Below, piece by piece: positions 1,643 to 61,094 of a stretch of DNA of 64,000 nucleotides. The notes beneath the pieces were generated by a model. It was not told the DNA's origin, did not search any database, and was given only the letters and a program-made list of their open reading frames with translations. Origin of the DNA: Thermoplasmata archaeon. Its GTDB lineage: Archaea; Thermoplasmatota; Thermoplasmata; Lutacidiplasmatales; UBA184. The stretch is from positions 8,952 through 72,951 of the forward strand of contig DAHUXZ010000006.1 in assembly GCA_027315455.1 (NCBI GenBank), read 5' to 3'. The translations under genes and the position numbers were made by a program. Position 1 is the stretch's first letter; every line of letters begins with the position of its first letter.

Positions 1643-1818
1643 TGGCTACCCGCGCCCGGTGCGTGACGCGCCGGGCTCCGGCCCGACGGCGGTTTTAACC
1701 CGTCCCCGGTCCGCCCGGTGTAGGGAGGTCGCCTACGGCGCGCACGCTCGTCGCTCTGGGGGGGAACGCGCTCCAGCGGGCCGGCCGGCCGGCGACCTGG
1801 GGAGAGACCGTCCGCCAA

Positions 1819-2691
1819 GTGCGCGCTACGGCGGCCGCCCTCGCGCCGCTTGCCGCGGAGGGTCACGCGCTCGTCCTGACCCACGGCAACGGCCCCCAGG
1901 TCGGGGGCCTCCTCCGCCAGAACGAGCTCGCCGAGCGGGAGGTCCCGCCCCGGCCGATGGATGTCCTCGGGGCGGAGACGGAAGGCCAGATCGGCTATCT
2001 CGTCCAGCAGGAGCTCGCGAACGCGCTCGCCCGCGCCCACGTTGCGCGGACCGTCGTGACCCTCATCACGCGCATCGAGGTCTCGCGGCGTGACCCCGCG
2101 TTCCGGCATCCGACGAAGCCCGTCGGGCGGTACTACTCCGAGGGTGAGGCGCGGATCCAACGCAAGCGGGAGGGCTGGCAGCTCGTCTACGACGGCGCCC
2201 GGGGGGGCTGGCGACGCGTCGTCCCGTCGCCGGAGCCCCGCCGTTGGCTCGAGGGGGAGCTCGTGCGGCAGCTCCTCGATCGCGGCGGCGGGGACTCGTG
2301 GATCCCGATCCTCGCGGGCGGGGGCGGCATCCCCGTCGTCGCGCGCGGTCGGGGGCAGTACGAGGGGGTCGAGGCCGTCATCGACAAGGACCTCACCGCG
2401 GCGCTCCTCGCCCGCGAACTTTCCGTGGAGACCCTCGCGATCGTCACCGACGTCCCGTCGGTCGCCGTGGGCTTCGGCCGGCCGTGGGAGCGATGGCTCG
2501 GTGAGGTCCGGGCCGCCGAGCTCGCCGACCATCTCGCGCGGGGAGAGTTCGGCGAGGGGAGCATGGCCCCCAAGGTGCGCGCCGGCCTACGGTTCCTGGC
2601 CGCCGGGGGACGGCGGGTCGTGATCACCGATGTCCCTTCGCTCGGACGCGCCCTCCGCGGCGAGGCCGGCACGCGGGTCGGACGCGACTAG
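1819..2691 (+). CDS. arcC: carbamate kinase (first canonical start GTG 1819; the true N-terminus probably begins near 1735)
   Basis: VLTHGNGPQVG and the C-terminal carbamate kinase motifs are present. The conserved N-terminal VALGGNAL is encoded in frame at 1750-1773, upstream of any ATG/GTG/TTG. GGGAGGT (1723-1729) followed by ACG at 1735 suggests a non-canonical start. Confidence 0.85.
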   Translation: MRATAAALAPLAAEGHALVLTHGNGPQVGGLLRQNELAEREVPPRPMDVLGAETEGQIGYLVQQELANALARAHVARTVVTLITRIEVSRRDPAFRHPTKPVGRYYSEGEARIQRKREGWQLVYDGARGGWRRVVPSPEPRRWLEGELVRQLLDRGGGDSWIPILAGGGGIPVVARGRGQYEGVEAVIDKDLTAALLARELSVETLAIVTDVPSVAVGFGRPWERWLGEVRAAELADHLARGEFGEGSMAPKVRAGLRFLAAGGRRVVITDVPSLGRALRGEAGTRVGRD

Positions 2692-33746: not shown

Positions 33747-34292
33747 CTAGACGGAGTAGTCGGGCCGGATCTCGGCCGCTCCCGAGGATCGGTTCGCGTA
33801 GAGCGCGAGCGCGAACAACAGATCGCTCAGCCGGTTCGCCCACGCCAACAGCTCCGGGGCGACCGGTTCGGAGTCGTTCAGGCCCCAGAGGGAGCGCTCG
33901 GCCCGACGGGCGACCGCGCGCGCGACGTGGAGCTCCGCCCCGACGCTCCCGCCTCCGGGCAGGACGAAGGAGGCGAGGTCGGTCAACTCCTTCGCGTAAC
34001 GGTCGATCTCGGACTCGAGACGCGTCACGTGCCCGGGCCCGATGCGATGCGCTCCCGCGGCGCCGGAGCTCGCGAGCTCGGCCTGCGCGACGAACAGCTC
34101 GTGCTGAAGCCGCGTGAGCAGCCCCGCGAGATCGGCATCGCGGCCGGCGAGGAGGGCCCGGGCGAGCCCCAGGTGGGCCCCTACCTCATCGAGGTCCCCG
34201 ACGGTCGCGATGCGCCGTGCGGTCTTCGCTACGCGTTGACCGCCCAGGAGACCGGTCTCGCCCCGGTCGCCACTACGGGTGTATAGCCGCGT
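33747..34292 (-). CDS. PduO-type ATP:cob(I)alamin adenosyltransferase (no canonical start; ACG at 34292 aligns with the family's Met1)
   Basis: Minus-strand translation gives T-RLYTRSGDRGETGLLGG...FVLPGG...HVARAVARRAER, the PduO-type signature. The frame is open upstream with no ATG/GTG/TTG. GGAGG lies ~10 nt upstream of the ACG. Confidence 0.65.
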   Translation of the reverse strand, partial: TRLYTRSGDRGETGLLGGQRVAKTARRIATVGDLDEVGAHLGLARALLAGRDADLAGLLTRLQHELFVAQAELASSGAAGAHRIGPGHVTRLESEIDRYAKELTDLASFVLPGGGSVGAELHVARAVARRAERSLWGLNDSEPVAPELLAWANRLSDLLFALALYANRSSGAAEIRPDYSV

Positions 34293-34489
34293 GGTACCCT
34301 CGCCTCCGGCCGCCCGGGGAGCGCATCGAGGGGAGAGCTCAGCCCGTGGACGGGACAGAACGAGATGTGCAGCACCTCATTATGCTTGGCGTCCTGACGG
34401 CACAATCGGCAGATGAACCCGCTCCGCTCGCTCCACGCAACCACGCCCAACGCTTCCATTCGCTACCGCTCCCTCGAAACCCCGGGGCC

Positions 34490-34891
34490 CTAGCGCTCGA
34501 GGAGGCCCCGCCCCTCGCGGTCCACTCGCTTTCGGTCCCGGGATCGGTCGGAGGTCTCCCGGGCGGCCTTTCTCAGCTCGCGCCACTGCTCGACGTGGAG
34601 CCGGTGGAGCGAGTCGAGGCCCATCGTCAGGACGAGGGTGAGCGCCCCGTCCACGTCGCGGGCATAGCCGTCGTCGACCAGCGTCTCGAGTTTCGAGCGC
34701 AACGTCACCGGTAGATCGAGGCCGCGGGGTCCGGCCACCGGTCCCGTCGCCCCGATGAGGGCGCGCACCGCGTGGGACCGGCTCGGACTCCCGTGCTCCG
34801 TTCGCCAGGTGTCGAGGCGCTCGAGCTCCTCGGACGTCAGCCGGAGACCGACGAACTTCGTCGCCGGTCCGCTTGAGCGAGGGACTCGCAC
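34490..34891 (-). CDS. ribbon-helix-helix (CopG-family) DNA-binding protein
   Basis: KFVGLRLTSEELERLDTWRTEHGSPSRSHAVRALI is an RHH beta-strand plus two helices. GTG start. Confidence 0.6.
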   Translation of the reverse strand: MRVPRSSGPATKFVGLRLTSEELERLDTWRTEHGSPSRSHAVRALIGATGPVAGPRGLDLPVTLRSKLETLVDDGYARDVDGALTLVLTMGLDSLHRLHVEQWRELRKAARETSDRSRDRKRVDREGRGLLER

Positions 34892-34943: not shown

Positions 34944-35160
34944 ATCGGCGGTACTCCCTTCGTCGAACGGCGGTGGGGGTTCGTTCCGCCTCCACGGACC
35001 GTAGGGGTGCGGCGGGCGGCTTCTCCCCGCCCTCCGGACCGCCCCCGATCTCTCCGACGGCGGCGGTCCTCCCGCGGACCGGAACGCTCCGCCCGCGGTC
35101 CGAGGGCCGGCGTGCGCCGGCAGCGGCATCTCCTTACGTGGGAAGCGACGACCGTTCGTC

Positions 35161-35556
35161 GTGGAGCTCGGCCCGTGCAGCCGCTGCGGGACGCGCAACC
35201 CCCCGGGCAGCCGGTTCTGTTCGCACTGCGGTCGACCCCTGGCGGCCGACGCCGGCGCTCCCACCGGGCCGGGGTTACTTTCGGCGTGGTGGCCGGTCGA
35301 CCCTTCCGCCTCGCTGCCGGGGCGGGATATCCGCTACGTCCTGATCGTCCTGGGGATCGCGCTCGCCCTCGTCGGGATCCTGCTGCTCGTCGCCGGGGCA
35401 ATGATCTCGAGCGCCCTCGCCGCCGGGGCCTCGGGGTGCGTCGGGTCGGGCTGCGCTTCCGTCGACCCGGGGGTGTGGTTCGAGTGGTTCGGACTTCCGC
35501 TGTTGGTCCTCGGGATCGGCCTGGTCGCCGCCGGGATCCTGTGGGCACTGCGGTAG
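35161..35556 (+). CDS. zinc-ribbon domain membrane protein
   Basis: N-terminal CSRCGTRNPPGSRFCSHCG zinc ribbon followed by two predicted TM helices. GTG start. Confidence 0.45.
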   Translation: MELGPCSRCGTRNPPGSRFCSHCGRPLAADAGAPTGPGLLSAWWPVDPSASLPGRDIRYVLIVLGIALALVGILLLVAGAMISSALAAGASGCVGSGCASVDPGVWFEWFGLPLLVLGIGLVAAGILWALR

Positions 35557-35575
35557 GGTCGCCGGGCTTCGGGGC

Positions 35576-36544
35576 CTAGAACATGTCGCCGCGATGGTTG
35601 GAGAAGGCCGGGTCGCTCCCGAGCGGGCGAAGGTCCTCCCCCAGCGACCGGGCCGGGACGAGCGGCTTGGCCATGAGGACCGCGTGGGAGACCGGGGAGA
35701 CGAGGAACCCCCCCTCCCTCAGGTCGACCTCGGCGTCCGTGACGAACGACGTCGATTGGAACGTGAGCCACCGGCCCCGGGCGAGGGAACGGAGGGCCGC
35801 GAGCATCGCCGGCCGGTGCTCCGGCGAAGGGACCACGACCTCGCTCGCGGTGAGGCTCCACGGCTTGTCGTCCGAGAGGTAGGCGTATCCCACGGGTCGG
35901 CGTCCGTCAAATAGGATGCGGAAGTTCTTCCAGCTCCGTCCGCCGAGGCGCGCGCGGAGCGTCGCCTGCGCCGGCGGGCGCGGGAGGAAACCCAGTCGGC
36001 CGTGCGTCCCGGAACGGAGGATCCGTTCGATCCGCCCGGCGTCCGCGGCACCGGCGACGAGCAGCCGGTAGCGCCCCGGCGGCCGTCGCGCCGCGGAGGA
36101 CGGGACCCGGCCCAGGGCGTAGGGCGTCGAGTAGATGTCCTGGTATCCGAGCGATTCATACAGGCGATGCGCGCCCCAGCTCCGCCGGGTCCAGAGGAAC
36201 GACCAGCGGGCCCCGTCGGCCCTCGAGCGTCGGTGCACCTCCTGGAGCAGGGCCCGGGCGTAGCCCCGTCCGAGCCCCGGCGGCCGGGTCACGACGTCCG
36301 CGACCCCGACGACCGGCTGCGTCCCGGTCCGCCCGGTGAACGGGAGGCGCAGGGTCTCGACCCGGGCGAGAAGCTCGTCCCCCTCGACGGCGTAGACGCC
36401 CCAGTAGTCGGTCGTCGGGTAGCCGAGCCGGCGCAGCCGTCCCAGGAACCGGTCGTCCTGCGGGGATTCGTTGTCGCAGACCCCCAGGGCGGCGAGCTGG
36501 GGCCTAAGGCCGGTCGGCAGCCCCGCCAGGTCGTAGATCTTCAC
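35576..36544 (-). CDS. GNAT-family N-acetyltransferase (two-domain)
   Basis: Acetyl-CoA-binding motif RPPGLGRGYARALL within GNAT fold pattern. Confidence 0.6.
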   Translation of the reverse strand: MKIYDLAGLPTGLRPQLAALGVCDNESPQDDRFLGRLRRLGYPTTDYWGVYAVEGDELLARVETLRLPFTGRTGTQPVVGVADVVTRPPGLGRGYARALLQEVHRRSRADGARWSFLWTRRSWGAHRLYESLGYQDIYSTPYALGRVPSSAARRPPGRYRLLVAGAADAGRIERILRSGTHGRLGFLPRPPAQATLRARLGGRSWKNFRILFDGRRPVGYAYLSDDKPWSLTASEVVVPSPEHRPAMLAALRSLARGRWLTFQSTSFVTDAEVDLREGGFLVSPVSHAVLMAKPLVPARSLGEDLRPLGSDPAFSNHRGDMF

Positions 36545-36580
36545 GGACCGCTGTCGTGGGACGACGTCGGATCCCGCGGC

Positions 36581-36868
36581 CTACGCTTGGACCGTGATCT
36601 TCCCGGAGCGGCCCGCGGAGACCTGGAGCTTCCCGCGGAAGTCCTTCACCCAGCCGTCGGTGATCCGGATCTTCTGGCCGACCTGGTAGCGCCGCGTGTC
36701 CTCGCCCCACAGGGTCAGGGTGATCGACCCGGTCTCGTCGGTCAGGGTCGCGTCGGCCACCTGGGAGGGGCCCCGCGCTGTCGTGACATCCCGCACTGCG
36801 GAGATCGCGGTGATGGTCGCGTCGATCGTCGCGCTCTGGTTCGCTCGGAGGGTGGCGATGCCGGTCAT
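36581..36868 (-). CDS. single OB-fold nucleic-acid-binding protein (SSB/RPA-like)
   Basis: 95 aa. ITLTLWGEDTRRYQVGQKIRITDGWVKDFRGKLQVS matches the OB-fold ssDNA-binding pattern of archaeal SSB/RPA. Confidence 0.55.
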   Translation of the reverse strand: MTGIATLRANQSATIDATITAISAVRDVTTARGPSQVADATLTDETGSITLTLWGEDTRRYQVGQKIRITDGWVKDFRGKLQVSAGRSGKITVQA

Positions 36869-37074
36869 GCCGACCGGGGTGAGCCGGCGGAGCGTATAGC
36901 CGTCCCCCTTGCCAGATTCGGGCCCGTCCGGGGGCTGCCGGCCCCCCGCCTCCCGCCGTACCCCCTACCGTGCGCGCCGACCGACGGCCCCGCGGACCGG
37001 CGGCGCGGGTCGAGAGGTTATGGGCCCCGCGTCCCTCTGCGGCCGTGAGCTCGACCCCCGCGCCCCCTCCCCCG

Positions 37075-37860
37075 ATGGAGGTCCCTGCGTCGCTCCGCGA
37101 GGTGACGGAGGTCGCGGAGGTGGACGGGCTCGCCCTCGCCCCGCTCTCCGAGTGGTTCGGGGAGCTCCTCCCGCACTTCATCGGCGAAACGCTGCGCTGC
37201 GGCGGCGAGGTGGCGCTGGCCGTCCAAGCGGACCACCCGGTGGGCCTCTATCTCTTTAGCCCGGGCGAAGAGATCGCGTCCGTCTTCTCCCGCTCGCCCG
37301 CGGTCGCCGAGATGCTCCTTCGCCACCGGCCGGCCCCCTCGACCTTCGCCGAGTTCGCCCTCGCGCCCGGCGCCGACCCGTATACGGTCTTCCTCGCCGA
37401 GCCGGACCGACGGCGGCCCGACGGGACGCTGCGGCACCCGGTGCGCCGCGCGCGCCCCCGGGACGGGCCCGCGATCGTCGGCCTCAACCGGGTCGTGCAC
37501 GGACGGGCGGACGAGCGCTGGTTCGCCGTTCCCCGACCGGCCTCGGAGCAGTACTTCGTGGTCGAGCTCAACGGCGAGCTCGCCGGCGCGGGCGGCTCGA
37601 CCCTCATCGGCACGACCGGTCGCCTCCACTCGCTCGCGGTCCACCCCCGCTTCCGCCGGCTCGGGGTCGGCACGGACCTCGTCCTCGCCCGCCTGATGTT
37701 CCTGGCCGCCGCGGGAGCGCGCCGCGTCTACTCGGAGATCGCCCAGCGGAACGCGCCGTCGCGGGCGATCGCCGAACGCGCGGGGATGCGCGCCGTCGGG
37801 ACCCTTTTCTGCCACGACCGGCCCCGGGCACCGGCGGGGTCTCCGCCGAGACCTCCCTAG
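37075..37860 (+). CDS. GNAT-family N-acetyltransferase
   Basis: C-terminal LAVHPRFRRLGVGTDLV motif A. Start at internal ATG. The stop codon lies inside the IS1182 left terminal repeat. Confidence 0.55.
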   Translation: MEVPASLREVTEVAEVDGLALAPLSEWFGELLPHFIGETLRCGGEVALAVQADHPVGLYLFSPGEEIASVFSRSPAVAEMLLRHRPAPSTFAEFALAPGADPYTVFLAEPDRRRPDGTLRHPVRRARPRDGPAIVGLNRVVHGRADERWFAVPRPASEQYFVVELNGELAGAGGSTLIGTTGRLHSLAVHPRFRRLGVGTDLVLARLMFLAAAGARRVYSEIAQRNAPSRAIAERAGMRAVGTLFCHDRPRAPAGSPPRPP

Positions 37861-39323
37861 GAGCGCGTAGCGCTATTCGTCTCGCGCACTGATTCGGTTC
37901 GAACGGTGGTACTATAGCCGGGCTCGTCTATCGAGGAGGTATGGCCTCCTCGAAGGGACCGTCATTCCGCAAGTACGATCCGAGTCAGACCGTCCTGCTT
38001 CCGACCAACCTCGACGAGTGGCTCCCCGAGGATCACCTCGCCCGCATCGTGGCCGAGGTGGTCGACCACCCCGACCTCGAGCCGCTCCTCGCCACCTACC
38101 GGAACGCCGAGGGAGGATTCCCGGCCTTCGATCCCCGACTCCAGCTCAAGGTCCTCCTCTATGGTTACTCCGTCGGCGTGGTGAGCTCTCGACGCCTCGA
38201 GAAGGCCACGTTCGAGGACCTCGCCGTCCGGTGGCTCGCCACCGACCAGCACCCGCACTTCACCACGCTCGCCCGGTTCCGCCATCGGAACCTTCCGCTC
38301 ATGGACGGGCTCTTCCACCAAGTGTTGGTGCAGTGCCGGGAGGCGGGCCTCGTGAAGCTCGGTCGGGTAGCACTCGACGGGACGAAGATCAAGGCCAATG
38401 CTTCGAAGCACCGCTCGAAGAGCTACGCCCGGCTTCGAGAGGAAGAGGACGAGCTGCGACGGCTATCGAAGGAGATTCTCCGAGAGGCCGAGAAGGCCGA
38501 CGAGGAGGAGGACCGGCTCTATGGAAAGGACCAGAACCCCCTCCTCCACCCAGCGCCCCCGGATTGGAAGGAGCGGCTGAAGAAGGCCCGTGAGGCGCGC
38601 AAAGCGCTCGAGGAGCGGGAGAGGAAGAAGGGTAAGGAGGCGCCGGAGACCACGGCGCAGTGCAACTTCACCGACCCCGACTCACGAATCGTTCAGGACA
38701 GCGGGAACAAGCGGGCGTTCATCCAAGGATACAACGCCCAAGCGGCGGTGGACGCGAAGAGCCAGGTGATCGTGATGGCGGCGATCACTCAAGAGAACCC
38801 GGACCAACAGCACTTGCTCCCGATGGTCGAGGCCTTGGAGAGGGAACTCGGAGAGCTCCCCGCGAAGCTCCTCTCCGATGCGGGGTACTTCAGCGAGACA
38901 CAGATCCGCGCCGTGGAGGCGAAGGGCGTGACGGTGTACTGCCCTCCGGACTCCTGGCACCTAACAAAAGGGAATCCGTGCCCCCGGGGGCGTCCTCCGA
39001 AGGACGAGGGGTTCAAGCAGTTCTTCCGTCGGAGGGTCCGGAGCTGGCGAGGGCGACAGGAGTACCGCTGGCGGAAGGTCAGCGTGGAACCGGTGTTTGG
39101 GCAGATCAAGCAGGGGAGAGGGTTGCGGCAGTTCCTCCTTCGAGGGAAAGCGAAGGTCGGAGCCGAGTGGAAGCTCTGGTGTCTGACCCACAATATCCGG
39201 AAACTACACGTGGCAAGCCTCGGCTGAAGGCCCGAGGGAGCGGATCGCAAGGGTCCCGAGTTCCACCGAACGAAGGAACGCCGAACGTCCCGCCCCGATC
39301 GGGGTAGAGCTACGCGCTCCTAG
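37857..39323 (+). mobile_element. IS1182-family insertion sequence (~1.47 kb) with ~19-bp imperfect terminal inverted repeats
   Basis: Left end CTAGGAGCGCGTAGC (37857-37871) matches the reverse complement of the right end GCTACGCGCTCCTAG (39309-39323). Single transposase ORF inside. GC ~58% versus ~70% flanking. Confidence 0.8.
37941..39227 (+). CDS. IS1182-family transposase (DDE)
   Basis: N-terminal YDPSQTVLLPTNLDEWLPEDHLARIV and a K/E/R-rich middle region typical of IS1182 transposases. Confidence 0.85.
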   Translation: MASSKGPSFRKYDPSQTVLLPTNLDEWLPEDHLARIVAEVVDHPDLEPLLATYRNAEGGFPAFDPRLQLKVLLYGYSVGVVSSRRLEKATFEDLAVRWLATDQHPHFTTLARFRHRNLPLMDGLFHQVLVQCREAGLVKLGRVALDGTKIKANASKHRSKSYARLREEEDELRRLSKEILREAEKADEEEDRLYGKDQNPLLHPAPPDWKERLKKAREARKALEERERKKGKEAPETTAQCNFTDPDSRIVQDSGNKRAFIQGYNAQAAVDAKSQVIVMAAITQENPDQQHLLPMVEALERELGELPAKLLSDAGYFSETQIRAVEAKGVTVYCPPDSWHLTKGNPCPRGRPPKDEGFKQFFRRRVRSWRGRQEYRWRKVSVEPVFGQIKQGRGLRQFLLRGKAKVGAEWKLWCLTHNIRKLHVASLG

Positions 39324-39329
39324 TGCACG

Positions 39330-39690
39330 CAGATACTCTCCTCAATTTCAGAAGCGACGTAGATCTTCTCCTCGGCCCTCCACCGGCTTGGGTCAAGACC
39401 CTAAAGGGGAAGGGGCGAGCAGCTGCCACAGGGCTAATCCCCGAGATGCGTGAGCGTGGACCCGATGGGAGGTGATTGTCAGGCCTTCGACCGTAAAGAA
39501 TGAGTTCTCGGCCCCTCCCTTCATTGTGGATTCGAATCGAGCGGTGGTTCGTGAGGATTCGCCTGACCTCCAATGAAAGCGGACCGAGGCTCGCAACCCG
39601 GCGTGGGCCTTAGCTCGCGTTCCACCTCCGGCGCAGGATTCACCCTTAGGTTCCTATCCAGGGCGGACCGGTCTGGAGACCCGGTCGAAT
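39330..39690 (+). ncRNA. candidate structured non-coding RNA (possibly SRP/7S RNA-like)
   Basis: ~370 bp with no credible ORF and lower GC. Contains GGGGAAGGGGCGAGCAGCUGCC, which resembles the SRP RNA helix-8 GGAA-tetraloop/AGCAGC region. Confidence 0.2.
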
Positions 39691-39700
39691 GCATGCTAGG

Positions 39701-40573
39701 TCATCGGGTTCGAACAGTCGGGGCCAGAATCTCCCCGCGACTGAGCCGCTGATCCACCTTTCCGAGGGCGAGCCAGAGCCCGTAGAGCAGCGAGACCGGG
39801 GATGGTGGACATCCCGGCACATACACCTCCACGGGGAGTACGCGATCCACCCCCCCTTCGATCTCCGGGGAACTCCGGAACGGTCCTCCGGAGATGCCGC
39901 ACGCCCCCACGGCAATCACGAAGGACGGGCCGGGCAAAGCCCGATAGGTCTTCTCGAGGGCAAGGCGCATGTTCCGAGTCACCGGACCCGTTACCAGCAG
40001 CGCATCGGCGTGACGGGGGGATGCGACGAGGTGGACTCCGAGACGCTCCATGTCGTAGCGTGGCCAAACCAGGGCAGCCACTTCGACCTCGCATCCGTTG
40101 CAGCTCCCGGCGTCTACGGCGCGGATCGCGAGCGATGTGCCGTAGAGCCGTTGGATGCGGTCCCGCACCTCCTCGGCCATCCGAGCCGAAGCCGCGGGCG
40201 GGGCGTCGGGACCGTGCCGGAGGAGTAGGTCCGACCGGCGCCGGACCGCCGTCTCCTCGAACCGGACCGACGTCATCGCTCCCGACGGGCAGGCGTCCAC
40301 GCAGAGCCCGCAGAATAGACACTTCCCGTAGTCGAGCCGGACCGTGATCGTTCCGGGGGCTTGGTCCACCGCGATTGCCCCCGTGGGACAGGCGCGAGCG
40401 CACGCCCCGGTCCTTTCGCATTCGGCGGCGTGGTGAACGGGGGTCCGGGGGGGGCCGTCCCACTCATCGAGCGGGCCGAGCGGATACCGGATCGTGCCCA
40501 TTGCGGGAAGGAGCGGCTCCGGGGCGGGGACCCTGGGGGGCGCCAGTGCGGGGTCGACCGGCGTCTCCGTCAC
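39701..40573 (-). CDS. fusion of a 2x[4Fe-4S] ferredoxin (NuoI/HyfH-like) and a NuoB/hydrogenase small-subunit-like protein
   Basis: N-terminus CERTGACARACP and CLFCGLCVDACP. C-terminal part has AVGACGISGG, SCNGCE and VPGCPP motifs of NuoB/HycG. Confidence 0.75.
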   Translation of the reverse strand: MTETPVDPALAPPRVPAPEPLLPAMGTIRYPLGPLDEWDGPPRTPVHHAAECERTGACARACPTGAIAVDQAPGTITVRLDYGKCLFCGLCVDACPSGAMTSVRFEETAVRRRSDLLLRHGPDAPPAASARMAEEVRDRIQRLYGTSLAIRAVDAGSCNGCEVEVAALVWPRYDMERLGVHLVASPRHADALLVTGPVTRNMRLALEKTYRALPGPSFVIAVGACGISGGPFRSSPEIEGGVDRVLPVEVYVPGCPPSPVSLLYGLWLALGKVDQRLSRGEILAPTVRTR

Positions 40574-42228
40574 CGATCATACCCTGAATAGGAGAGATTG
40601 AGGCTCTTGTTGCACAGCGGGAAGTCTGGGACGATGTTCCCCCTAACCGCGAGCTCGATTGCCGGCCAGTTCAGGAACGACGGGTCCCGCACGTGCACCC
40701 GTTCGAGTTTCGCCCCCGGCCCCAGAGTGACGTGAACGAGGTACTCGCCCCGCGGGGATTCCACCCAGCCGAGACCGGACCGGCCTTCGGTCCCAGGCTG
40801 TGCGGGAACGTCACCTGGGACCGAAACACCTTGTCGAACGCTCGAGAGGAATCTCTGAGCCAGCCGACAAGATTCGACGATCTCCTCGATCTTGACCACC
40901 AACCGGGCTTGCACGTCCCCGTCGATCCCTCGGGGAACCCGCACCTCGTTCCCGAGGTAGGCACCGTACGGTCGGTCGTGCCGCAGATCGATGCGTAACC
41001 CGGAGGCCCGGGCCGTAGGACCGACGAAATGCATCAGCTCCGCAATCCACCGAGGGATGGTCCCAGTGCCCTGCAGACGGTCCACCACCGACGACTTGCC
41101 GAGCAGCTCCTCCCGCAGGGCGACGATTCCGTCGCGGAGTCGCTCGTAGGTGCCCCCCAGCTCGGGGGTCGCGCTCACCCGGACCGGCCGTCGCAGGCCG
41201 CCGACCCCGACGACGCCTCGGCCCAATCGGGACCCGGTGAGGGCCTGGAGTGTCTGATACGCGGACTCCCGGAGCCGGTTCGCATGAGCGGCCCCAACGG
41301 GGTAGCCGACGTCCAAGGCGATGCCGGCTACATCCCCGCAAAGGAACGCCATCCGTTCTGTCTCCATCAACAGACCACGGAGGATCTCGTCGTCAGGCGG
41401 GACGGGAAGTTCGAGGGCCCGCTCCACGGCGTGGGCGTACGCCACTGACCCAGCGATGGACATGTCGCCGGAAACCGACTCCGCCCATATCGTCCCGAGG
41501 TCGCTCGGCTTTCCTTCGAACAGCCGCTCCGTCCCTTTGTGGTTGTAGCCTAGGCGGACCTCCAGGTCCAGGATATTTTCCCCGACGACCTGGAACCGGA
41601 AGTGTCCGGGTTCGATCACCCCGGCGTGGACAGGGCCGACGGGGACCTCGTAGACGCCTTCGCCCTCCACCATGGAGAACGGGTACTCGACCCGCTGACC
41701 GTCGGGGGCGGAGTCGGGGCCCTTGAGGAGCGGCGGGGCGGGATGTCCTTCGTGCAGCAGCAGCGGTCGTCGGTCCTCCAATCCGTCGAACACGACGCCG
41801 AACATCTCCGCGACCTCCCGTTCAAAGGGTGCAGCGTACGGCAACGTCGTCGAGAGCGTCGGTAGCGTCGGTCGGTCCGGATCGATTGCACAGACGAAGT
41901 GGACGCCCCCGGAGGGCAGGGTCCCGAGGAACAACGCGTGAATCCGGATCTTCCCGAGGTAGCTCCGGGCATCCTCGCCGAAGAGCGTCGAGAGCGGGTG
42001 ATGCAACGAGTCCAGGGCGAGGGCGGCCGCGGCGTTCCACCGCTCCGGCGGCACTGGCACCCGCCAGAGCTCCTCGGAGGGGTCCCACGCGACCGAGGTG
42101 GTCCCGAGCTCTAGGAGCATGCGTCGCTCCTCGGCGGGGGTAGGTCGGCTCGGGAAGTCGCTGACCAGGGCCACCGACGGGGCCGGCTCTCTAGGGACCT
42201 CCTCCCCCTCCTTCGGAAGTCGGATCAT
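40570..42228 (-). CDS. NuoC-NuoD fusion (complex I 30-kDa plus 49-kDa / hydrogenase large-subunit-like) lacking [NiFe] cysteines
   Basis: NuoD-like RLGYNHKGTERLFEG where hydrogenases have RxCGxC. C-terminus ends ...NLSYSGYDR rather than DPCxxC. Start ATG overlaps the upstream stop. Confidence 0.8.
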   Translation of the reverse strand: MIRLPKEGEEVPREPAPSVALVSDFPSRPTPAEERRMLLELGTTSVAWDPSEELWRVPVPPERWNAAAALALDSLHHPLSTLFGEDARSYLGKIRIHALFLGTLPSGGVHFVCAIDPDRPTLPTLSTTLPYAAPFEREVAEMFGVVFDGLEDRRPLLLHEGHPAPPLLKGPDSAPDGQRVEYPFSMVEGEGVYEVPVGPVHAGVIEPGHFRFQVVGENILDLEVRLGYNHKGTERLFEGKPSDLGTIWAESVSGDMSIAGSVAYAHAVERALELPVPPDDEILRGLLMETERMAFLCGDVAGIALDVGYPVGAAHANRLRESAYQTLQALTGSRLGRGVVGVGGLRRPVRVSATPELGGTYERLRDGIVALREELLGKSSVVDRLQGTGTIPRWIAELMHFVGPTARASGLRIDLRHDRPYGAYLGNEVRVPRGIDGDVQARLVVKIEEIVESCRLAQRFLSSVRQGVSVPGDVPAQPGTEGRSGLGWVESPRGEYLVHVTLGPGAKLERVHVRDPSFLNWPAIELAVRGNIVPDFPLCNKSLNLSYSGYDR

Positions 42229-43700
42229 CCGTTCACCACCTGGACCGCCCCGTGCAGGAGCTGGGAGAGGGGGTCCGGGAGGAGGAGGCCGAGGGCGAGG
42301 GCGACGGCCAGCACGACTCCGAGCCCGAGGGAGGCGCAAACGACGGCTCGGGTCTCCGGGGCGTATGGGTGGCCGGGGGGGCCGAGGAGCATGCGGGTCA
42401 AGTGCCAAGAGAGCGCCCCGAACGCCAATACGAGGGCAATCAGCATGAGGCCAGCCGCGACGCCGTTGCCCTGCGAGAATCCCGCGGAAAGGATCAGGAG
42501 CTCGCTGGAGAACATCGAGAACGGGGGCACGCCGGCAAGGGCCAGCCCGCCGAGCAGCAGGAGCGCGCCGGTCCCTGGGGCGGCCACCAGGGCGCCCTGA
42601 ATCTCCTGCAGGTCCTTGGTCCGGGCAGCGAGGGCGAGGTTTCCGCTCACCAGGAACAGGGCGGTCTTGGTCGCCGCATGGTTCAAGAGGTGGTAGAGCG
42701 CGCCGAAGAGTCCGATCGCGCCCCCGAAGGCGAGACCGAGAGCGATGATGCCCATGTTCTCCACAGAGGAGTAGGCGAGCAGTCGCTTCAGGTCCCGCTG
42801 AACAAAGAGGAACAGCGCCGCGAGGAAGACCGAGAGGAGGCCGAAGATCAAGAAGAACCGCTGGGTCCAGAGAAAGCCCGGGATCCTCAGGGTGATCGCG
42901 TAGATCCGGATGAGAGCGTACATGGCGCAGTTGAGAAGCGCACCGGAGAGGAGCGCGGAAACCGGCGTCGGCGCCTCCGAGTGGGCATCCGGGAGCCAGG
43001 TGTGGAGCGGCGCGAGGCCGGCCTTCGTCCCGTACCCAACGAAGAGGAAGACGAGGGCGAGGCGCACTAGGCCCGGGTCCAGCTGGGATCCCGACGACAC
43101 CAGGGTCGTCCAATTCAGCTCGGAGTTTCCCGCGCCGAGGACGTGAACGGAAGCGACGTAGAGCAGGAGCGTTCCGAAGAGGGCGAAGACGAGTCCGACG
43201 CTGCAGAGGATGAGGTATTTCCAGGACGCCTCCTGGGCCCGTCGGGTCTGGTAGTAGCCGACCAGCAATGCCGAGGCCAGGGTCGTCCCCTCCAATCCGA
43301 TCCAGAGCACCCCGAGGTTGTTCGCTTCGGCAACGAGGTACATCGTGAACAGGAACAGGAAGACGAGCTGGTAGTACCGGCGCAACCTTGGCAGCGGCGC
43401 TTCATGCGGACTGCCCGACCGACCGAGGTAGTCGACGGAGTACAGGAGCGAGGCGAGCCCGACGACAGCGACGATGAGGAGGAGTAGCCCTGACAGGTCG
43501 TCCACATAGAGCAACCCCCCGTACGAGGAGAGGGCCCCGAGAGTGAGGAGCGCCTGCAGCAGGAAGGCCACCACCAGGCCGAGGGCCAGAGCCACCGCGA
43601 TGGCGACTGCGTTTGCCTGGTCTCGGGTGCGGGCGAAAGCGACGGCGCCAGCCCCCGCGAGCGGCACGATGAGGACGAGGAGGATCCAGGGGATCGGCAC
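42225..43700 (-). CDS. NuoN/NuoM-HyfF-like proton-pumping antiporter subunit
   Basis: 14-TM Mrp-antiporter-like protein with GTKAGLAPLHTWLPDAH motif. Confidence 0.75.
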   Translation of the reverse strand: MPIPWILLVLIVPLAGAGAVAFARTRDQANAVAIAVALALGLVVAFLLQALLTLGALSSYGGLLYVDDLSGLLLLIVAVVGLASLLYSVDYLGRSGSPHEAPLPRLRRYYQLVFLFLFTMYLVAEANNLGVLWIGLEGTTLASALLVGYYQTRRAQEASWKYLILCSVGLVFALFGTLLLYVASVHVLGAGNSELNWTTLVSSGSQLDPGLVRLALVFLFVGYGTKAGLAPLHTWLPDAHSEAPTPVSALLSGALLNCAMYALIRIYAITLRIPGFLWTQRFFLIFGLLSVFLAALFLFVQRDLKRLLAYSSVENMGIIALGLAFGGAIGLFGALYHLLNHAATKTALFLVSGNLALAARTKDLQEIQGALVAAPGTGALLLLGGLALAGVPPFSMFSSELLILSAGFSQGNGVAAGLMLIALVLAFGALSWHLTRMLLGPPGHPYAPETRAVVCASLGLGVVLAVALALGLLLPDPLSQLLHGAVQVVNG

Positions 43701-43709
43701 GGCGGGGGC

Positions 43710-44366
43710 TCACCCCTCCAAGGCCCGCAGGGCATCGGCGTCGACGTGGTCGAACGACTCCTTCATCCTCTCGAGGAAGATCCTGGCCACGATCGCAAGG
43801 ACGAGGAGGTTCGCCGCGAGGCCGAGCTCGACGAAGAGCCCTAGGCCGTACGTGAGGGCGATCCCGGCGAGGAAGATCCCGTTGTTCATCACCAAAAGGC
43901 CGACGACCTGGGTAATCGCCTTGCGTCGGGTGATCAGGAGAAAGAACCCGATCAATAGCACGGCCACGGAGATCGGCAACAGCCCGGCCGAAGGGACTTC
44001 CGCAAAGGGTGTGATCCCCCCGACGACCCAGACCGAGACGAGGAGGATTGCGAGCCCTGCCAACGCGCTCGCTCGGACGGAGGCGTACATGTTGACCATC
44101 CGGGAGACGCCGAGGTTCCGGACGACGCGACGCAGCAGCCATGGCAGCACGATCGCGTTGACGACAATCGTGAGTCCGGCGAGAACGTAGATGTCCGGTG
44201 CCTGGTACTGATACGCTACCAGGCCAGCGGTGATGCCGAGGGCGCCGGACTGGATCGCGTAGGTGTCGACGAGGGCCTCGATCCGCCGGTGGATGAGGGA
44301 GATCCACGCGGTAACCAGCACGATGGCGGCGGAGATGTCGAGGGCCTGGACCGCCAGCACGATCAT
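43710..44366 (-). CDS. HyfE-like small membrane subunit
   Basis: 218-aa polytopic membrane protein positioned as in hyf operons. Start overlaps the upstream stop. Confidence 0.55.
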   Translation of the reverse strand: MIVLAVQALDISAAIVLVTAWISLIHRRIEALVDTYAIQSGALGITAGLVAYQYQAPDIYVLAGLTIVVNAIVLPWLLRRVVRNLGVSRMVNMYASVRASALAGLAILLVSVWVVGGITPFAEVPSAGLLPISVAVLLIGFFLLITRRKAITQVVGLLVMNNGIFLAGIALTYGLGLFVELGLAANLLVLAIVARIFLERMKESFDHVDADALRALEG

Positions 44367-45328
44367 GCGCCCCCGCCGACGACGTACGTGAGGGCGAGGG
44401 ATCCGAAGGCGAAGACGACGGCCAGAGTCGTCAGGTCCGCGACGCGGAAGAGTCGCCACTTGGCGACCCCGGCCTCGAGCCGGCTGACGAGCACGTGTGC
44501 CCCGAGGAGCTTGATCACGACGATCCCAACGGCGAGCGAAACGAGGGCAAGGGTCCACGACGTGCTGATGCCCCACGGCGCGGCGAGGGCGATCAAGAGC
44601 CCGATCATGATCGCAAGCTTGAACCCCCGACCCCACTCGAGGAGGGCGAGGTCGCGGCCCGAGTACTCCAGCACCATCGCTTCGTGCACCATGGTGAGCT
44701 CGAGGTGGGTAGCCGAGTTGTCGATAGGGAGCCGGCCGGTCTCCACGAGCAACAACAGCACATAGGCGACGATGGCCAGCAGCAGCGGTGGGCTGGCGTA
44801 CGCGATCCCGAGAGAGACGCCCCGGGCCGCGATGGCCCCGGCCTGCGTCGAGCCGGCAGGGCTGCCGAAGGCGAAGATGACTAGGAGGAACACTGGCTCG
44901 GCGAGAGCTCCCATCCACATTTCTCGGGTCGATCCCATGCCGCCGAAGGTGCTCCCGGCGTCCGTGGCCGCGAGAGCAGTGATGAACCGGGAGAGCGCGA
45001 GGAGCCCGACCAGCACGATCAGATCGCCAAAGGTCCCAAGCGGCGACGGCAGGACGAACCAGGGGATCAGGGGAACGGTGGCGAGGAGCGCCGCGAAGGA
45101 GATCGCCGGCGCGTAACGGGTGACCCACGAGGCGGATTTCGAGTACACCGCATCCTTGCCGATCAGTTTCCAGAGATCCCGATACGGCTGCAGGAGAGGC
45201 GGACCGACGCGCCCCTGGGTACGGGCCTTGACCCGGCCAAGCACCGCGAGGAGGAGCGGTGAGAGACCAAGGACGAGGAGGTACTCCCCGACGAACGCGA
45301 CCAGTTGGGCGGGCACCGACGCGGTCAC
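44363..45328 (-). CDS. NuoH/HyfC-HycD-like membrane subunit
   Basis: 8-TM NuoH-family pattern (GRVKARTQGRVGPPLLQPYRDLWKL). Confidence 0.75.
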   Translation of the reverse strand: MTASVPAQLVAFVGEYLLVLGLSPLLLAVLGRVKARTQGRVGPPLLQPYRDLWKLIGKDAVYSKSASWVTRYAPAISFAALLATVPLIPWFVLPSPLGTFGDLIVLVGLLALSRFITALAATDAGSTFGGMGSTREMWMGALAEPVFLLVIFAFGSPAGSTQAGAIAARGVSLGIAYASPPLLLAIVAYVLLLLVETGRLPIDNSATHLELTMVHEAMVLEYSGRDLALLEWGRGFKLAIMIGLLIALAAPWGISTSWTLALVSLAVGIVVIKLLGAHVLVSRLEAGVAKWRLFRVADLTTLAVVFAFGSLALTYVVGGGA

Positions 45329-47391
45329 GGTGCGGGTCCCCCGACGGCGCGAACGAGCAGCAGGAGCCCGACGAGGGTGACGAAGATGTACGCCAGGTAC
45401 GCGTGGATGCGGCCGGACTGGAGCCGGCTCATCCTACGGGCGAGCCCGAAGATCCCGGACGCGACGGGAGGGAACACCCACGCCCGGATCGGCTCGGCAA
45501 TCTCCACGGTGTACCGTCTCACCCGGGCGAGGACGATCCATGGCGGTCGCAGGGCCGGCGCGCTATCGGAACGCTCTATCGGCCGGTAGAACTCTTCAAA
45601 GATGCGCACCACGGGCTGGGCGTATCCGGTGGCGGTATACTCCATCCTGGGGGTGGGCGCATCGAGACCGCAGTCCCACATCGGTCCTACGACGGTGGCG
45701 GGAGCCCCCCGGATCCGCCAGACGGCCCACGCGACCAGGAGCCCCGCGCCCAGAAGGAGCGCGACAGCTCCGGGGGCAAGCGGGAGAGAGCCCCCGGAGC
45801 CGTTGGGCAGGTTGGACAGCACCGAGAGGGAGACCCCCGAGCCGACGGCGGCTCCCGTCAACTCCCGCAGGGGCCGAGTGGCGAGATCGAGCGCGAGGAC
45901 CGGCGCGACGCCTAGGGCGAGGCAGAACGCGGCGAGGATCCCCATCCCCCCCACCAGGGAGGAGGGAGGCGAACCCGCGAGCTCGGCCTGCTGGGACCGG
46001 GGCCTCGCCAGGAAGGCGATCCCGAACGCCTTGACGAAGCAATAAGCGGCTAGCCCGCTGGTGAGCGCGAGCACCGCGGCCAGGATCGAGAGCGTCATCT
46101 CCGCGGTGACGGAGCCCGTGGAGAATGCGGCGAAGAAGCTCTGGAAGAGGAGCCACTCGCTGACGAAGCCATTGAACGGCGGCAGAGCAGAGATCGCCAT
46201 CGCGCCGACGAAGAAGCCCAGCGCGACGCCCGGCATCCGCCGGATGAGGCCGCCCATCCGCTCGAGGTCGCGCGTCCCGGTCTCCCCGACTGCGGCACCG
46301 GCGCCGAGGAAGAGGAGCGACTTGAACAGTGCGTGGTTCCAGGTGTGCAGGAGCGCCGCCGCGAGAGCGAGTGCTGCGAGAGCCGGGTAGCCGAGGTTCT
46401 GGAACAGGAGCCCCGCGCCCACGCCGAGGAGGATGATGCCGATGTTCTCGATGGAGTGAAACGCGAGGAGCCGTTTCAGATTGTGTTGGACGATGGCGTA
46501 GAGCACCCCAGCCAGCGCCGAGACCCCGCCTAGGGCGAGGATCGTGTACGCCCACCAGCTGGGCCCCCCTCCTAGCAGGCCGAGGACGACGCGGAGGAGA
46601 CCGAAGATTCCCAGCTTGATCATCACGCCGGACATCAGTGCCGAGACGTTGCTTGGCGCGGCGGGGTGGGCGTCCGGCAGCCAAGAATGGAAGGGTACCA
46701 TGGCGGCCTTCGTGCCGAACCCTACGAGGGCCGCCAGGAACACGGCGTCGCGAACTCCGGGCGGGAGCCCCCCGGCGCCCGCAGCAATCCCCTCCCAGGT
46801 GGTCGACCCGGTCGCCGTCGCCAGCAGCAGGAACGAGACGAGGATCGCCCCCGTGGCCGCGTGGCTCATCACGAGGTAGACGAGGCCCGCCTCGCGGCTC
46901 TCCGCGTCCTCGTGGTCGTGAATGACGAGGAAGTAGGAAACAAGGGTCATCGCCTCCCACGCGACCAGGAAGAGGAAGATGGTCCCCGCGGTGCATACCA
47001 GCACCATCGTCAGGACGAAGAGGCCGCATCCTCCGGCGAGGAACCCACGGCGTTGAGGAACGTACCGCTCGGCGTACCCGACCGAAGCCAGCAATATCGC
47101 GGATCCGCTGACGGATACGACCAAGAGGAAGAACGCCGAGAGCGGATCCTCCTGAATCCCCAGGGCGAGCACCGGCGATGCCGGCACCGTCCCCGGCAAC
47201 CCTAGGGACGACGCGGGCAGCGTCCCTCCGAGCAGGACCAGGACCGATTGGACCGTGGTGATGGCGCAGGACAAGGCGCCCAGCAGGAACGACGCTCGGA
47301 CCTCCACCGGCCGACGGCTGGCGAACCCCAGCACGGTCGCGGCTGAGAGTCCGGCGAGAGAGACGAGCAGGAGCAGTTCGCGAAGATTCAT
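45325..47391 (-). CDS. NuoL/HyfB-HycC-like antiporter subunit
   Basis: 688-aa Mrp-antiporter-like subunit with GFGTKAAMVPFHSWLPDAH motif. Confidence 0.8.
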   Translation of the reverse strand: MNLRELLLLVSLAGLSAATVLGFASRRPVEVRASFLLGALSCAITTVQSVLVLLGGTLPASSLGLPGTVPASPVLALGIQEDPLSAFFLLVVSVSGSAILLASVGYAERYVPQRRGFLAGGCGLFVLTMVLVCTAGTIFLFLVAWEAMTLVSYFLVIHDHEDAESREAGLVYLVMSHAATGAILVSFLLLATATGSTTWEGIAAGAGGLPPGVRDAVFLAALVGFGTKAAMVPFHSWLPDAHPAAPSNVSALMSGVMIKLGIFGLLRVVLGLLGGGPSWWAYTILALGGVSALAGVLYAIVQHNLKRLLAFHSIENIGIILLGVGAGLLFQNLGYPALAALALAAALLHTWNHALFKSLLFLGAGAAVGETGTRDLERMGGLIRRMPGVALGFFVGAMAISALPPFNGFVSEWLLFQSFFAAFSTGSVTAEMTLSILAAVLALTSGLAAYCFVKAFGIAFLARPRSQQAELAGSPPSSLVGGMGILAAFCLALGVAPVLALDLATRPLRELTGAAVGSGVSLSVLSNLPNGSGGSLPLAPGAVALLLGAGLLVAWAVWRIRGAPATVVGPMWDCGLDAPTPRMEYTATGYAQPVVRIFEEFYRPIERSDSAPALRPPWIVLARVRRYTVEIAEPIRAWVFPPVASGIFGLARRMSRLQSGRIHAYLAYIFVTLVGLLLLVRAVGGPAP

Positions 47392-47575
47392 GGACCGGGG
47401 GTTCGCGCGGTCCCGTCAGGGAACGACCGACGGGGGGTCCGCGCCGGCGCAGTGCAACGGGACCATACGATGATGGAGGAGCCGGGCCAGGTCATCCCGA
47501 GGCGGTTGGGATAGTCTAAGACGGTCTGGACCGACTCCGATACGGTAATTACCCCTCCGGCGCCCTGTCTCACGC

Positions 47576-48712: not shown

Positions 48713-48902
48713 CACCGCACCCCCCGGGAAGGCCTCGAAAGATCACCGGGATCCGGACGAACTCCGTGATGGGGGCCATAACGCACGCATTCAGCTCGAC
48801 CTTTTCTGAAACGCAGTTGAGTCGCGAGGAATGAGCGGCCGCATGGTCGGATTCCCTGCGGCTTCAGGATTCTAGGGTCGCGGGCCGGGCTGGACATTGA
48901 AT

Positions 48903-52680: not shown

Positions 52681-52681
52681 G

Positions 52682-53884: not shown

Positions 53885-54053
53885 CCGCCCCCCGCCGCGG
53901 CCCCCGACGCGATCGACGGCCCGTTCGACGCGATACCCGCAGCCCCCGGACTCGCGGGCATCGCACCCTCGGCGGGCCCTCGAGCCGGAGGAGCCCCAAA
54001 AGGGTTCCCCGGCAGGGCCCCGCCGCCGTCAGGTCCCCACGTCGCCCCGTGAG

Positions 54054-58097: not shown

Positions 58098-58203
58098 GCG
58101 CTCCCACGTCCGAAACGGGTCGCGGTCGAGAGATTCGCCGCCGGCACGATAAACCCTTGGAGCACGCCGCCGCCCGTCGGGGAGCCCGGGATCGCCGGTG
58201 ATC

Positions 58204-60937: not shown

Positions 60938-61094
60938 GCGGGCCCGGCCGCCGCGTGAGCCATCTTTTATATCGCCGGGACGGCATGTTTGCCGGCGCGG
61001 GCCCCCTCCCATCGGGCGTCGGGCCTAGTTCCTCGGGGGGGCGAAGGCCACGACGGGCTCCGGCGGCATCGGAACGCTTCCCTCCTCTCGCCTG

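Follow-up and report, generated by a model that had tools for sequence, protein, structure and literature searches.

ACG is probably a weak start codon in three intact, conserved genes of a GC-rich Thermoplasmata archaeon

The window analyzed here (the whole stretch of DNA under study, 64,000 nt) comes from a very GC-rich Thermoplasmata archaeon (74% GC) and harbors three genes whose conserved, selected coding sequence has no canonical start codon (ATG, GTG, or TTG) upstream of it: arcC, a PduO-type gene, and a gene for a large coiled-coil protein. The arcC product matches the Pfam family AA_kinase (PF00696; profile positions 2–234 of 234, E = 1.9e-24) and the carbamate kinases in the PDB, the best of which is the Pyrococcus furiosus enzyme (1e19; E = 1.3e-79, residues 4–312), with five more carbamate kinase structures also matching. 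Judged by this full-length similarity to solved enzymes, arcC is a carbamate kinase. The Pfam and PDB alignments start at codons 14–16 of the stop-to-stop ORF, and the AA_kinase match itself (from profile position 2) begins at codon 15, which is 26 codons before the first canonical start.

The layout of the arcC start region given in a preliminary description of this DNA is borne out on reading: the frame opens after a TAA (1696–1698), a Shine-Dalgarno-like GGGAGGT lies at 1723–1729, in-frame ACG codons occur at 1735 and 1744, and the VALGGNAL motif is encoded at 1750–1773, with no ATG, GTG, or TTG in frame between the TAA and the GTG at 1819–1821. This GTG is the choice of the gene callers (a 290-aa product, P0001), and starting there would remove the VALGGNAL loop; the N-terminal strand and Gly-rich loop would be part of the product only if, as seems probable, translation begins further upstream, and TLVALGGNALQR is the segment whose presence in the protein would imply this. 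In the databases searched, the arcC of this species occurs only as the 290-aa product, which lacks the catalytic N-terminal loop. Relatives with a truncated arcC call (P0041, P0015, and P0020) were considered as additional start-less cases and rejected, because at the DNA level each has an ordinary start, TTG or GTG, that gene callers missed.

A TATA-box-like TTTTAA (1693–1698) lies inside the block GGTTTTAACCCG, which is kept in two relatives, L002 (gggttttaacccg) and L003 (ggctttaatcgg). Given the usual archaeal distance from TATA box to transcription start, we infer that this is a candidate promoter element; it would set the 5′ end of the transcript at approximately 1720–1725 and leave a short leader containing the Shine-Dalgarno sequence. 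The latter aligns with, and is conserved as, GGAGGT in L003, a sister species. In the window, GGGAGGT ends 5 nt before ACG 1735, and its GGAGG core is 6 nt from this ACG (a functional spacing) and 9 nt from the adjacent GCG (1738–1740). The codon-usage change point of the gene falls exactly at ACG 1735 (1735–1737), the proposed initiation codon, from which the coding region would extend through the stop codon at 2691.

Comparison with homologs places the start differently from the preliminary description, which had aligned ACG 1744 with Met1 of characterized carbamate kinases. ACG 1744 encodes an internal Thr, and Met1 of the PDB enzymes aligns one to two codons upstream of 1735. ACG 1735 itself aligns with the GTG start of a homolog, L168 (GTG GCG CGG ATA CTC, MARIL…), and is thus a near-cognate codon in a homologous start column; many 318-aa homologs begin with MAR[IV]LVALGGNAL. 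The counterpart of the closest relatives' start codon (GTG in L003; TTG in L002 and L165) is GCG 1738 rather than an ACG, and the spacing from the Shine-Dalgarno sequence to this column is the same in L003 as in the window, with no indel. The ACG is species-specific, as L003 has GCC in its place and starts at the GTG one codon downstream, so that it could be a chance triplet (roughly 2% per position). Initiation at another non-standard site is a reading to be weighed, and we regard it, together with the non-standard mechanism considered below for PduO, as improbable. GCG 1738 holds both the ancestral start column and the ancestral Shine-Dalgarno spacing, but is two mismatches from AUG; GTG 1819 is the gene callers' pick, but a protein truncated to start there drops the conserved Gly-rich loop, which is itself under purifying selection. 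Moreover, reading of the sequence and ORF list found no plausible upstream ORF overlapping arcC, which speaks against a mechanism that depends on one.

The arcC gene is otherwise intact. Its 318 codons contain no stop and no frameshift, none of the 116 columns conserved at ≥95% among 107 aligned homologs deviates, and dN/dS relative to L003 is 0.113 at a dS of 0.87, at the low end of 12 neighboring genes (0.05 to 0.33). In the RTLVALGGNA stretch, the window and L003 differ by five synonymous and no non-synonymous changes, which argues that the stretch ahead of GTG 1819 is translated. Neither lesions beyond the start nor relaxed selection, as would mark a pseudogene, were found. The main rival to initiation at ACG is that the start codon was lost only very recently: arcC would be a young or nearly silent pseudogene, inactivated too recently for other damage to have accumulated, in which GC-biased mutation of the former initiation region has left an ACG. 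We consider this unlikely but worth serious attention. The orthologous start column is GCG where L003, L002, and L165 have GTG or TTG, L003 lacks the ACG, and an ACG at a dead start would be unsurprising, because GC-biased transitions acting on a decaying ATG are expected to produce ACG first. In the L003 gene, moreover, an in-frame TAG replaces a conserved Glu codon, and two other conserved columns deviate (one of them by Gly-to-Asp), which suggests a relaxed need for the enzyme, and arcC may be becoming dispensable in this genus. Against this stand the low dN/dS over a substantial dS, the undisturbed conserved columns and reading frame, the strong Shine-Dalgarno sequence that has been kept, the fixation of the change in two samples, and the presence in the same 64 kb of two more genes that lack a canonical start and are clearly maintained; inactivation very late in the lineage is possible.

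In the PduO ORF (33747–34376, reverse strand), the Pfam domain begins at residue 31, but a canonical start first occurs at codon 117. Read from an ACG at 34292–34290, the region 33747–34292 encodes a PduO-type cob(I)alamin adenosyltransferase (Pfam Cob_adeno_trans), and the profile (1–171) begins two codons past this ACG. A GGAGG (34303–34307, reverse strand) precedes the ACG by 10 nt, which is a functional spacing, and lies within CCGGAGGC; this sequence is nearly invariant in 74 unique related loci, where it is followed either by 7 nt and ATC or by 10 nt and ACG. Approximately half of these loci are without any canonical start, a condition common to dozens of other Thermoplasmata lineages represented by JGI and NCBI contigs. 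Searches of the databases gave no full-length, near-identical PduO product of this species. The preliminary description was right that a canonical start is missing, and wrong to place Met1 at ACG 34292: this codon aligns with Met1 of bacterial-type PduO only, while within Thermoplasmata it is a conserved Thr, and most predicted proteins have a Met eight codons upstream. The ACG is kept in 18 of 18 unique "xTRLY" loci, a count confounded by an overlapping ORF, and this invariance was rejected as proof of start function: nearby Thr codons are equally invariant, third positions are constrained by the overlapping frame, and conservation of this ACG is equally explained by that frame because an Arg CGC codon in it fixes the G.

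The overlapping ORF (34229–34459, reverse strand) spans the 5′ end of PduO and encodes a conserved 76-aa zinc-finger protein (C-x2-C … C-x2-H), found in 188 tblastn-confirmed metagenome stretches and matching no Pfam family. PduO occupies the –1 frame relative to it, the 53-nt register between the two is fixed in nearly all loci, and the stop codon of the zinc-finger ORF is held in place by a rare GTA or ATA codon at PduO codon +19. On comparative grounds, the two frames overlap in a dual-coding arrangement that is widely conserved and undescribed. The upstream TTG or ATG that would start a 205-aa class of PduO proteins was discounted, and is probably fortuitous, because it is made of the last base of a Phe codon and a Cys codon (TTY TGY) of the zinc-finger ORF. 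The frame relationship and the fixed register would be consistent with PduO being coupled or fused to the zinc-finger ORF by –1 frameshifting, but the junction has no conserved X XXY YYZ heptamer in the 74 unique loci and its codons vary freely (CTC CCC GGG, TTA CCG TGG, TTA CCA GGA, and others), so that the fusion was rejected. A PduO protein begun at the ACG would have a mass of approximately 20 kDa, one begun at codon –9 approximately 21 kDa, and the fusion approximately 25 kDa. No riboswitch or other known RNA was found upstream of PduO, either in an Rfam search at gathering thresholds across the window or in a search of 34150–34520 at E ≤ 1.

In the coiled-coil ORF (61029 onward, forward strand), the earliest canonical start is codon 131. 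While the absence of a canonical start up to that codon agrees with the preliminary description, the ACG cited there (61095–61097) aligns as an internal conserved Thr of SSRLTRILQEKAE (SSRLT[RK]ILQEKAE in the alignment), and the start column is instead occupied by an ACG at 61050–61052, after which there is no canonical start for 123 codons. This column contains ATG in two orthologs (L172 and L175) and ACG in three, L173 and L174 among them; L172 and L174 resemble long-read contigs with frameshifted protein tails, so that the ACG of L174 is weaker evidence. The Shine-Dalgarno-like stretch GGGGGGGCGAAGG (61035–61047), whose aligned counterparts are GGGGGAGGAAG (L173) and GGGGGCGGGA (L172), is G-rich and offers only a GAAGG, 2 nt before the ACG, a weaker signal than those of arcC and PduO. 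An alternative near-cognate start, ATC at 61068–61070, aligns with the second Met (ATG) of L172 and L173. The codons after ACG 61050 differ synonymously between the window and L173 (TCC/TCG, GGC/GGA, and GGC/GGG), and all three SNPs upstream of the first canonical start that distinguish the window from the same-species assembly L170 are synonymous. Initiation at 61050 would give an N-terminal tryptic peptide (M)TGSGGIGTLPSSR with Met, or TTGSGGIGTLPSSR with Thr, while canonical-start calling costs this gene approximately 120 residues.

A codon-usage change-point scan of the approximately 50 coding ORFs in the window found only arcC, PduO, and the coiled-coil gene to be clearly coding before the first canonical start. 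Three other ORFs (36581–36964, 52682–54028, and 54054–58253) have change points upstream of the first canonical start by smaller offsets, and were set aside since each has a plausible canonical start. A candidate fourth case, CTG 8838, whose counterpart in L003 is a GTG that gene calling takes as the start, proved to be a gene-caller over-extension into the 3′ end of ThiI; the proper GTG start is present in both genomes (at 8877 in the window). At ORF openings in the 64-kb window, where there are too few sites to be informative, the combination of GGAGG, a 3–10 nt spacer, and ACG shows no measurable enrichment. The window has no tRNA genes, and hence no initiator tRNA to compare.

The preliminary description had also raised systematic T-to-C errors in ATG codons as the cause of the pattern. 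The sequence is MAG-derived and every change runs from AT to GC, as such errors would; this reading is nevertheless very improbable. Independent assemblies of the same species that carry SNPs elsewhere have bases identical to the window at arcC (L001, a Logan assembly; 3 SNPs in 4958 nt) and at the coiled-coil gene (L170, 10 in 5387 nt; L171, 8 in 797 nt), and the bases of the arcC start region are thus fixed in two samples. A search for a second same-species assembly covering the PduO site found none; the start-less form of this gene recurs, however, across lineages in dozens of JGI and NCBI contigs, and at the coiled-coil start, ACG is also present in L173 and L174. Furthermore, a single T-to-C error in an ATG could not restore the arcC arrangement of the relatives, because the orthologous column in the window is GCG and not ACG.

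What remains plain is that all three genes lack a canonical start ahead of intact, conserved coding sequence, that each has a Shine-Dalgarno sequence or a similar stretch, and that the positions align as described. From this comparative evidence, ACG is probably a weak start codon in the three genes, and Shine-Dalgarno-guided initiation at ACG by the initiator tRNA is the best explanation, to which we assign an even chance of being correct. It outlasts the alignments with which it was introduced, three of whose four cited positions (1744, 34292, and 61095) were wrong. For arcC, which is under purifying selection and has lost the GTG or TTG start of its relatives, the 3′ end of the 16S rRNA would pair with GGGAGGT (1723–1729) and place ACG 1735, 5–6 nt downstream, in the P site. 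The initiator Met-tRNA would then read ACG despite the mispaired middle base, probably with lower efficiency, and insert Met, yielding a normal enzyme of 318 aa that begins Met-Ala-Arg-Thr-Leu-Val-Ala-Leu-Gly-Gly (M-A-R-T-L-V-A-L-G-G-N-A-L…). The coiled-coil gene (ACG 61050) appears to use the same solution, and PduO (ACG 34292) possibly does so. More tentatively, and with rather more doubt than belief, we suggest that this soil/peat clade of Thermoplasmata routinely uses ACG, and probably also AUC, to start a few percent of its genes.

If initiation at ACG is genuine, these would be, as far as we know, the first natural ACG starts in Archaea; full-text searches, which reach only a minority of subscription journals, turned up no naturally ACG-initiated gene in archaea or bacteria. 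They would offer a route to study how archaeal aIF1, aIF2, and the initiator tRNA police the middle codon position, and would show how genes can survive the erosion of their start codons under extreme GC pressure. Routine use of ACG and AUC in the clade would imply relaxed start-codon discrimination by these same factors, and standard gene callers would then truncate or miss such genes in every MAG of the group. With the arcC, PduO, and coiled-coil products truncated or missing, metabolic reconstructions built on such MAGs would get these genes wrong.

Several known systems resemble this one in part. In plant organelles, C-to-U RNA editing creates AUG from an ACG start, and, as in the case described here, the genomic ACG stands at a conserved Met1 position. 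Editing of this kind would account for the recurrence specifically of ACG at start positions, but ACG is also the likeliest single-transition derivative of ATG, neither an editing factor nor a cis element was identified, and the organellar system requires PPR/DYW-type factors; we know of no C-to-U editing of archaeal mRNAs, and find it scarcely credible as the explanation. Pseudogenes formed by start-codon loss share with arcC the missing canonical start of its relatives, whereas arcC has no other lesions, a low dN/dS, and has kept its conserved residues and Shine-Dalgarno sequence. Near-cognate ACG initiation, to return to the preferred reading, is known from eukaryotic and viral mRNAs, such as those for VP2 of AAV and the C′ protein of Sendai virus. 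There, too, the initiator Met-tRNA decodes, with reduced efficiency, an ACG in place of the AUG of a functional ORF, but on a scanning 40S subunit in Kozak context and usually to yield an extra isoform beside the AUG-initiated one; the case described here would be archaeal and Shine-Dalgarno-guided, with ACG as the only start of the gene. Among bacteria, infC starts at AUU, while ACG, to our knowledge, is absent from the start codons of translation table 11. In E. coli, AUA, AUC, AUU, and CUG initiate at 1–2% of the level of AUG and other codons, including ACG, at 0.1–1%, and ACG-initiated GFP carried an N-terminal Met (bioRxiv 10.1101/063800). The rare non-NUG starts of bacteria are like those proposed here in that initiation directed by a Shine-Dalgarno sequence occurs one mismatch from AUG, but in this archaeon there would be three such genes within 64 kb, with at least one case shared between species.

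Only three genes in the window, encoding carbamate kinase (arcC), a PduO-type cob(I)alamin adenosyltransferase and a coiled-coil protein, clearly code upstream of their first canonical start codon (ATG, GTG or TTG), as judged from a change-point scan of ~50 coding ORFs in which a shift in codon usage marks the onset of coding. Three other change-point candidates have plausible canonical starts, and CTG 8838, which at first resembled a fourth case, reflects a gene-calling artefact in a sister species (L003, GCA_027320345.1), the real start being GTG 8877. L003 is syntenic with the window over the first 13 kb, where all other compared genes have canonical starts that align in both. The 64 kb window (GC 64–76%) carries the archaeal markers aIF5A, ribosomal protein L1, FtsY and an archaeal ArsR-type regulator, and its best protein matches bear the name "Thermoplasmata archaeon." Closely matching DNA occurs in an NCBI assembly (L170, GCA_027315875.1; 99.8% identity), an ENA assembly (L171; 99.0%) and a Logan assembly of SRR13766252 (L001; 99.94%). 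Separately, a small OB-fold gene (36581–36964) has AAGGGGGA followed after 7 nt by an ACG (36896–36898, minus strand), nine codons upstream of its first ATG; this is possibly another ACG start, with the canonical ATG available too.

The sequence features of arcC are present as the preliminary description gave them: a TAA at 1696, the Shine-Dalgarno-like (SD) sequence GGGAGGT at 1723–1729, an ACG in the same frame at 1735 and another at 1744, the VALGGNAL motif encoded at 1750–1773, and GTG 1819 as the first canonical start in frame. The conserved N-terminus does precede any canonical start, since the Pfam AA_kinase model begins at codon 15 of the stop-to-stop ORF, and solved carbamate kinases (PDB) align from codons 14–16. 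Homologues are mostly 317–318 aa in length and begin MR[TIV]LVALGGNAL or MAR[IV]LVALGGNAL; the only product of this species' arcC in the searched protein database is a 290-aa protein (P0001) called from GTG 1819. ACG 1744 had been placed at Met1 of characterized carbamate kinases; instead, the PDB Met1 aligns one to two codons upstream of 1735, and ACG 1744 is the Thr or Ile position of M-A-R-[T/I]-L-V. In the DNA alignment of arcC starts (A4), L003 has GGAGGT, 8 nt, then GTG CGG ACG CTC, and two other relatives (L002, L165) have TTG in the column of this GTG, which is GCG 1738 in the window; in L168 (GTG GCG CGG ATA CTC), the GTG shares a column with ACG 1735. Of the family's two start columns, the window therefore has GCG in one and ACG in the other. 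Three shortened arcC gene calls in relatives, considered as further startless cases, have ordinary starts overlooked by the callers, so the condition is confined to this species. The product itself is an ordinary carbamate kinase; its initiation is the unusual part. On the other side of the intergenic region, an adenylosuccinate lyase gene runs divergently from a GTG start at 1615 (minus strand), and CTATATAT (1636–1643), ~22–28 nt ahead of that GTG, is kept in L001, L002 and L003, which suggests a leaderless purB transcript arising from the region common with arcC.

Systematic T-to-C errors, earlier put forward as a cause, are not supported: L001 differs from the window at three positions in 4958 nt and carries the same bases around 1735–1740. 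This identity despite SNPs elsewhere argues against random error, and sequencing error is largely excluded. Comparison with L003 (whose arcC protein is about 86% identical) gives a dN/dS of 0.113 (dS 0.87) for arcC, toward the low end of the range for 12 neighboring genes (0.05 to 0.33), and the RTLVALGGNA stretch has five synonymous and zero non-synonymous differences. The protein deviates at none of the 116 columns that are ≥95% conserved (107 homologues), and the onset of coding falls exactly at ACG 1735 in the codon-usage change-point analysis. By these measures, the window arcC is free of signs of decay. A very recent loss of its start codon is a rival explanation, favored by the lack of conservation of ACG 1735 and by lesions in the sister species: L003 arcC has an in-frame TAG in place of a conserved Glu (ELAER*VPP; 2300–2310, DAHVLO010000033.1) and a Gly-to-Asp change at one conserved Gly, and gene callers split it in two. 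A pseudogene, an assembly error and a read-through site are all conceivable there, and in view of the TAG and the Gly-to-Asp change arcC may be turning dispensable in this genus.

For the coiled-coil gene, the reported absence of a canonical start holds, but ACG 61095, taken for Met1, is an internal Thr of the PSSRLT motif in homologues, which open MSG...PSSRLT[RK]ILQEKAE or MG..PSSRLT.... In the corresponding DNA alignment (A3), L172 and L175 carry ATG in the start column, where the window (61050), L173 and L174 carry ACG, with a G-rich SD-like stretch upstream in every case aligned. After ACG 61050, 123 codons pass in the window without a canonical start, and ATC 61068 occupies the position of the second ATG in L172 and L173. 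L174 has none until a TTG inside the conserved motif; in L173 an ATG follows six codons past the ACG, and the intervening codons encode the window's amino acids with synonymous differences. Upstream of the first canonical start, L170 differs from the window by three SNPs, all of them synonymous. L172 (ENA ERZ25039540) and L174 (ENA ERZ25039509) resemble contigs assembled from long reads; in the coiled-coil proteins predicted from them (P0242 and P0244), Arg/Gly/Pro-rich stretches and frameshifted-looking tails have the look of out-of-frame translation. Both contigs probably carry indel errors, and single-base evidence there needs caution; the ACG of L174 is weaker evidence because of its long-read-like contig and frameshifted-looking tail.

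The PduO ORF likewise has its first canonical start only at codon 117, with the Pfam domain from residue 31, but ACG 34292, also described as Met1, is a conserved Thr in Thermoplasmata homologues. These are mostly predicted to begin MAxGGxxx-[T/IP/IA]-RLYTRTGD, with the usual Met 8 codons further upstream, at a position that reads CGG in the window. The 5' end of PduO is overlapped by a small zinc-finger ORF (34229–34459, minus strand; 76 aa, C-x2-C ... C-x2-H) with no Pfam family and the conserved sequence …WSERSGFICRLCRQDAKHNEVLHISFCPVHGLSSPLDxLPGRPEAR…. Present in the window and in L004–L010 and L085–L164, it covers the first ~20 PduO codons, and the register is fixed at nearly all of some 87 related loci in which both could be located; the PduO frame is always -1 relative to it, nearly always with a 53-nt register. 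This is a widespread, apparently undescribed dual-coding arrangement. A fusion of the two by -1 frameshifting is unlikely, because the junction shows no conserved slippery heptamer among 74 unique sequences. In the same set, PduO-frame codon -9 is GTG in 29 and CTG in 12, and otherwise a non-start (CGG, GGG, TGG, AGG or GAG), as in the window; because it is so often a non-start, about half of the sequences lack a canonical start. A change-point scan of the related loci flagged 54 of 327 ORFs as lacking an early canonical start, about 40 of them PduO. PduO does show this absence to be an old, stable, biological condition in the clade.

GGAGG is nearly invariant at PduO, followed by 7 nt and ATC (56 sequences) or by 10 nt and ACG (18 sequences). 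Invariance of the ACG was rejected as evidence for start function: nearby Thr codons are just as invariant, and each third position in PduO doubles as a second position of the overlapping frame, in which the CGC codon of a conserved Arg holds the G constant. A rare GTA/ATA codon conserved at codon +19 apparently holds the zinc-finger ORF stop in place. Within the zinc-finger ORF, the codons CAT AAT never vary in this high-GC clade, though AT-ending and rare; they form GCATAATG (34378–34385, minus strand), which resembles a TATA box internal to the ORF, some 25 nt ahead of 34355, and is possibly a dedicated PduO promoter. In L004, the RHH-like gene beside PduO directly adjoins a 1400-aa Anticodon_1/DUF835 gene, whereas ~19 kb separates them in the window (~35000–54000, especially 37941–39224 and 48937–50076). 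Here the 38–50 kb stretch has lower GC (0.64–0.69), strong AT skew, and Mrp/complex-I-like membrane subunit genes between two transposases (DDE_Tnp_1 and DDE_3), and resembles an island bounded by transposons.

The preliminary observation holds in part. In arcC and the coiled-coil gene, the SD most likely directs initiation at ACG by the initiator Met-tRNA; the same is plausible for PduO. It is favored because the upstream coding sequence is intact and selected, the SD is retained at workable spacing, the ACG aligns with homologues' start codons, and the situation recurs across three genes, with at least one case found in more than one species. For arcC, with the earlier coordinates and alignments corrected, ACG initiation is the best available hypothesis, with roughly even prospects of being right. 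In Escherichia coli, ACG initiates at about 0.1–1% of AUG, yielding a product with N-terminal Met (bioRxiv 10.1101/063800), which makes low-level function mechanistically credible. Rival explanations are another start site or a coupling mechanism, and C-to-U editing of the mRNA, although the latter is not known from archaea.

The full-text literature searched, with most subscription journals outside its coverage, described no naturally occurring ACG start in any archaeon or bacterium. Eukaryotic and viral mRNAs have near-cognate ACG starts, plant organelles have genomic ACG at Met1 through editing, and in prokaryotes AUU, AUC, AUA and CUG count as rare but accepted starts. Recurrent ACG starts in an archaeon, as the comparative evidence suggests here, would surprise a specialist.
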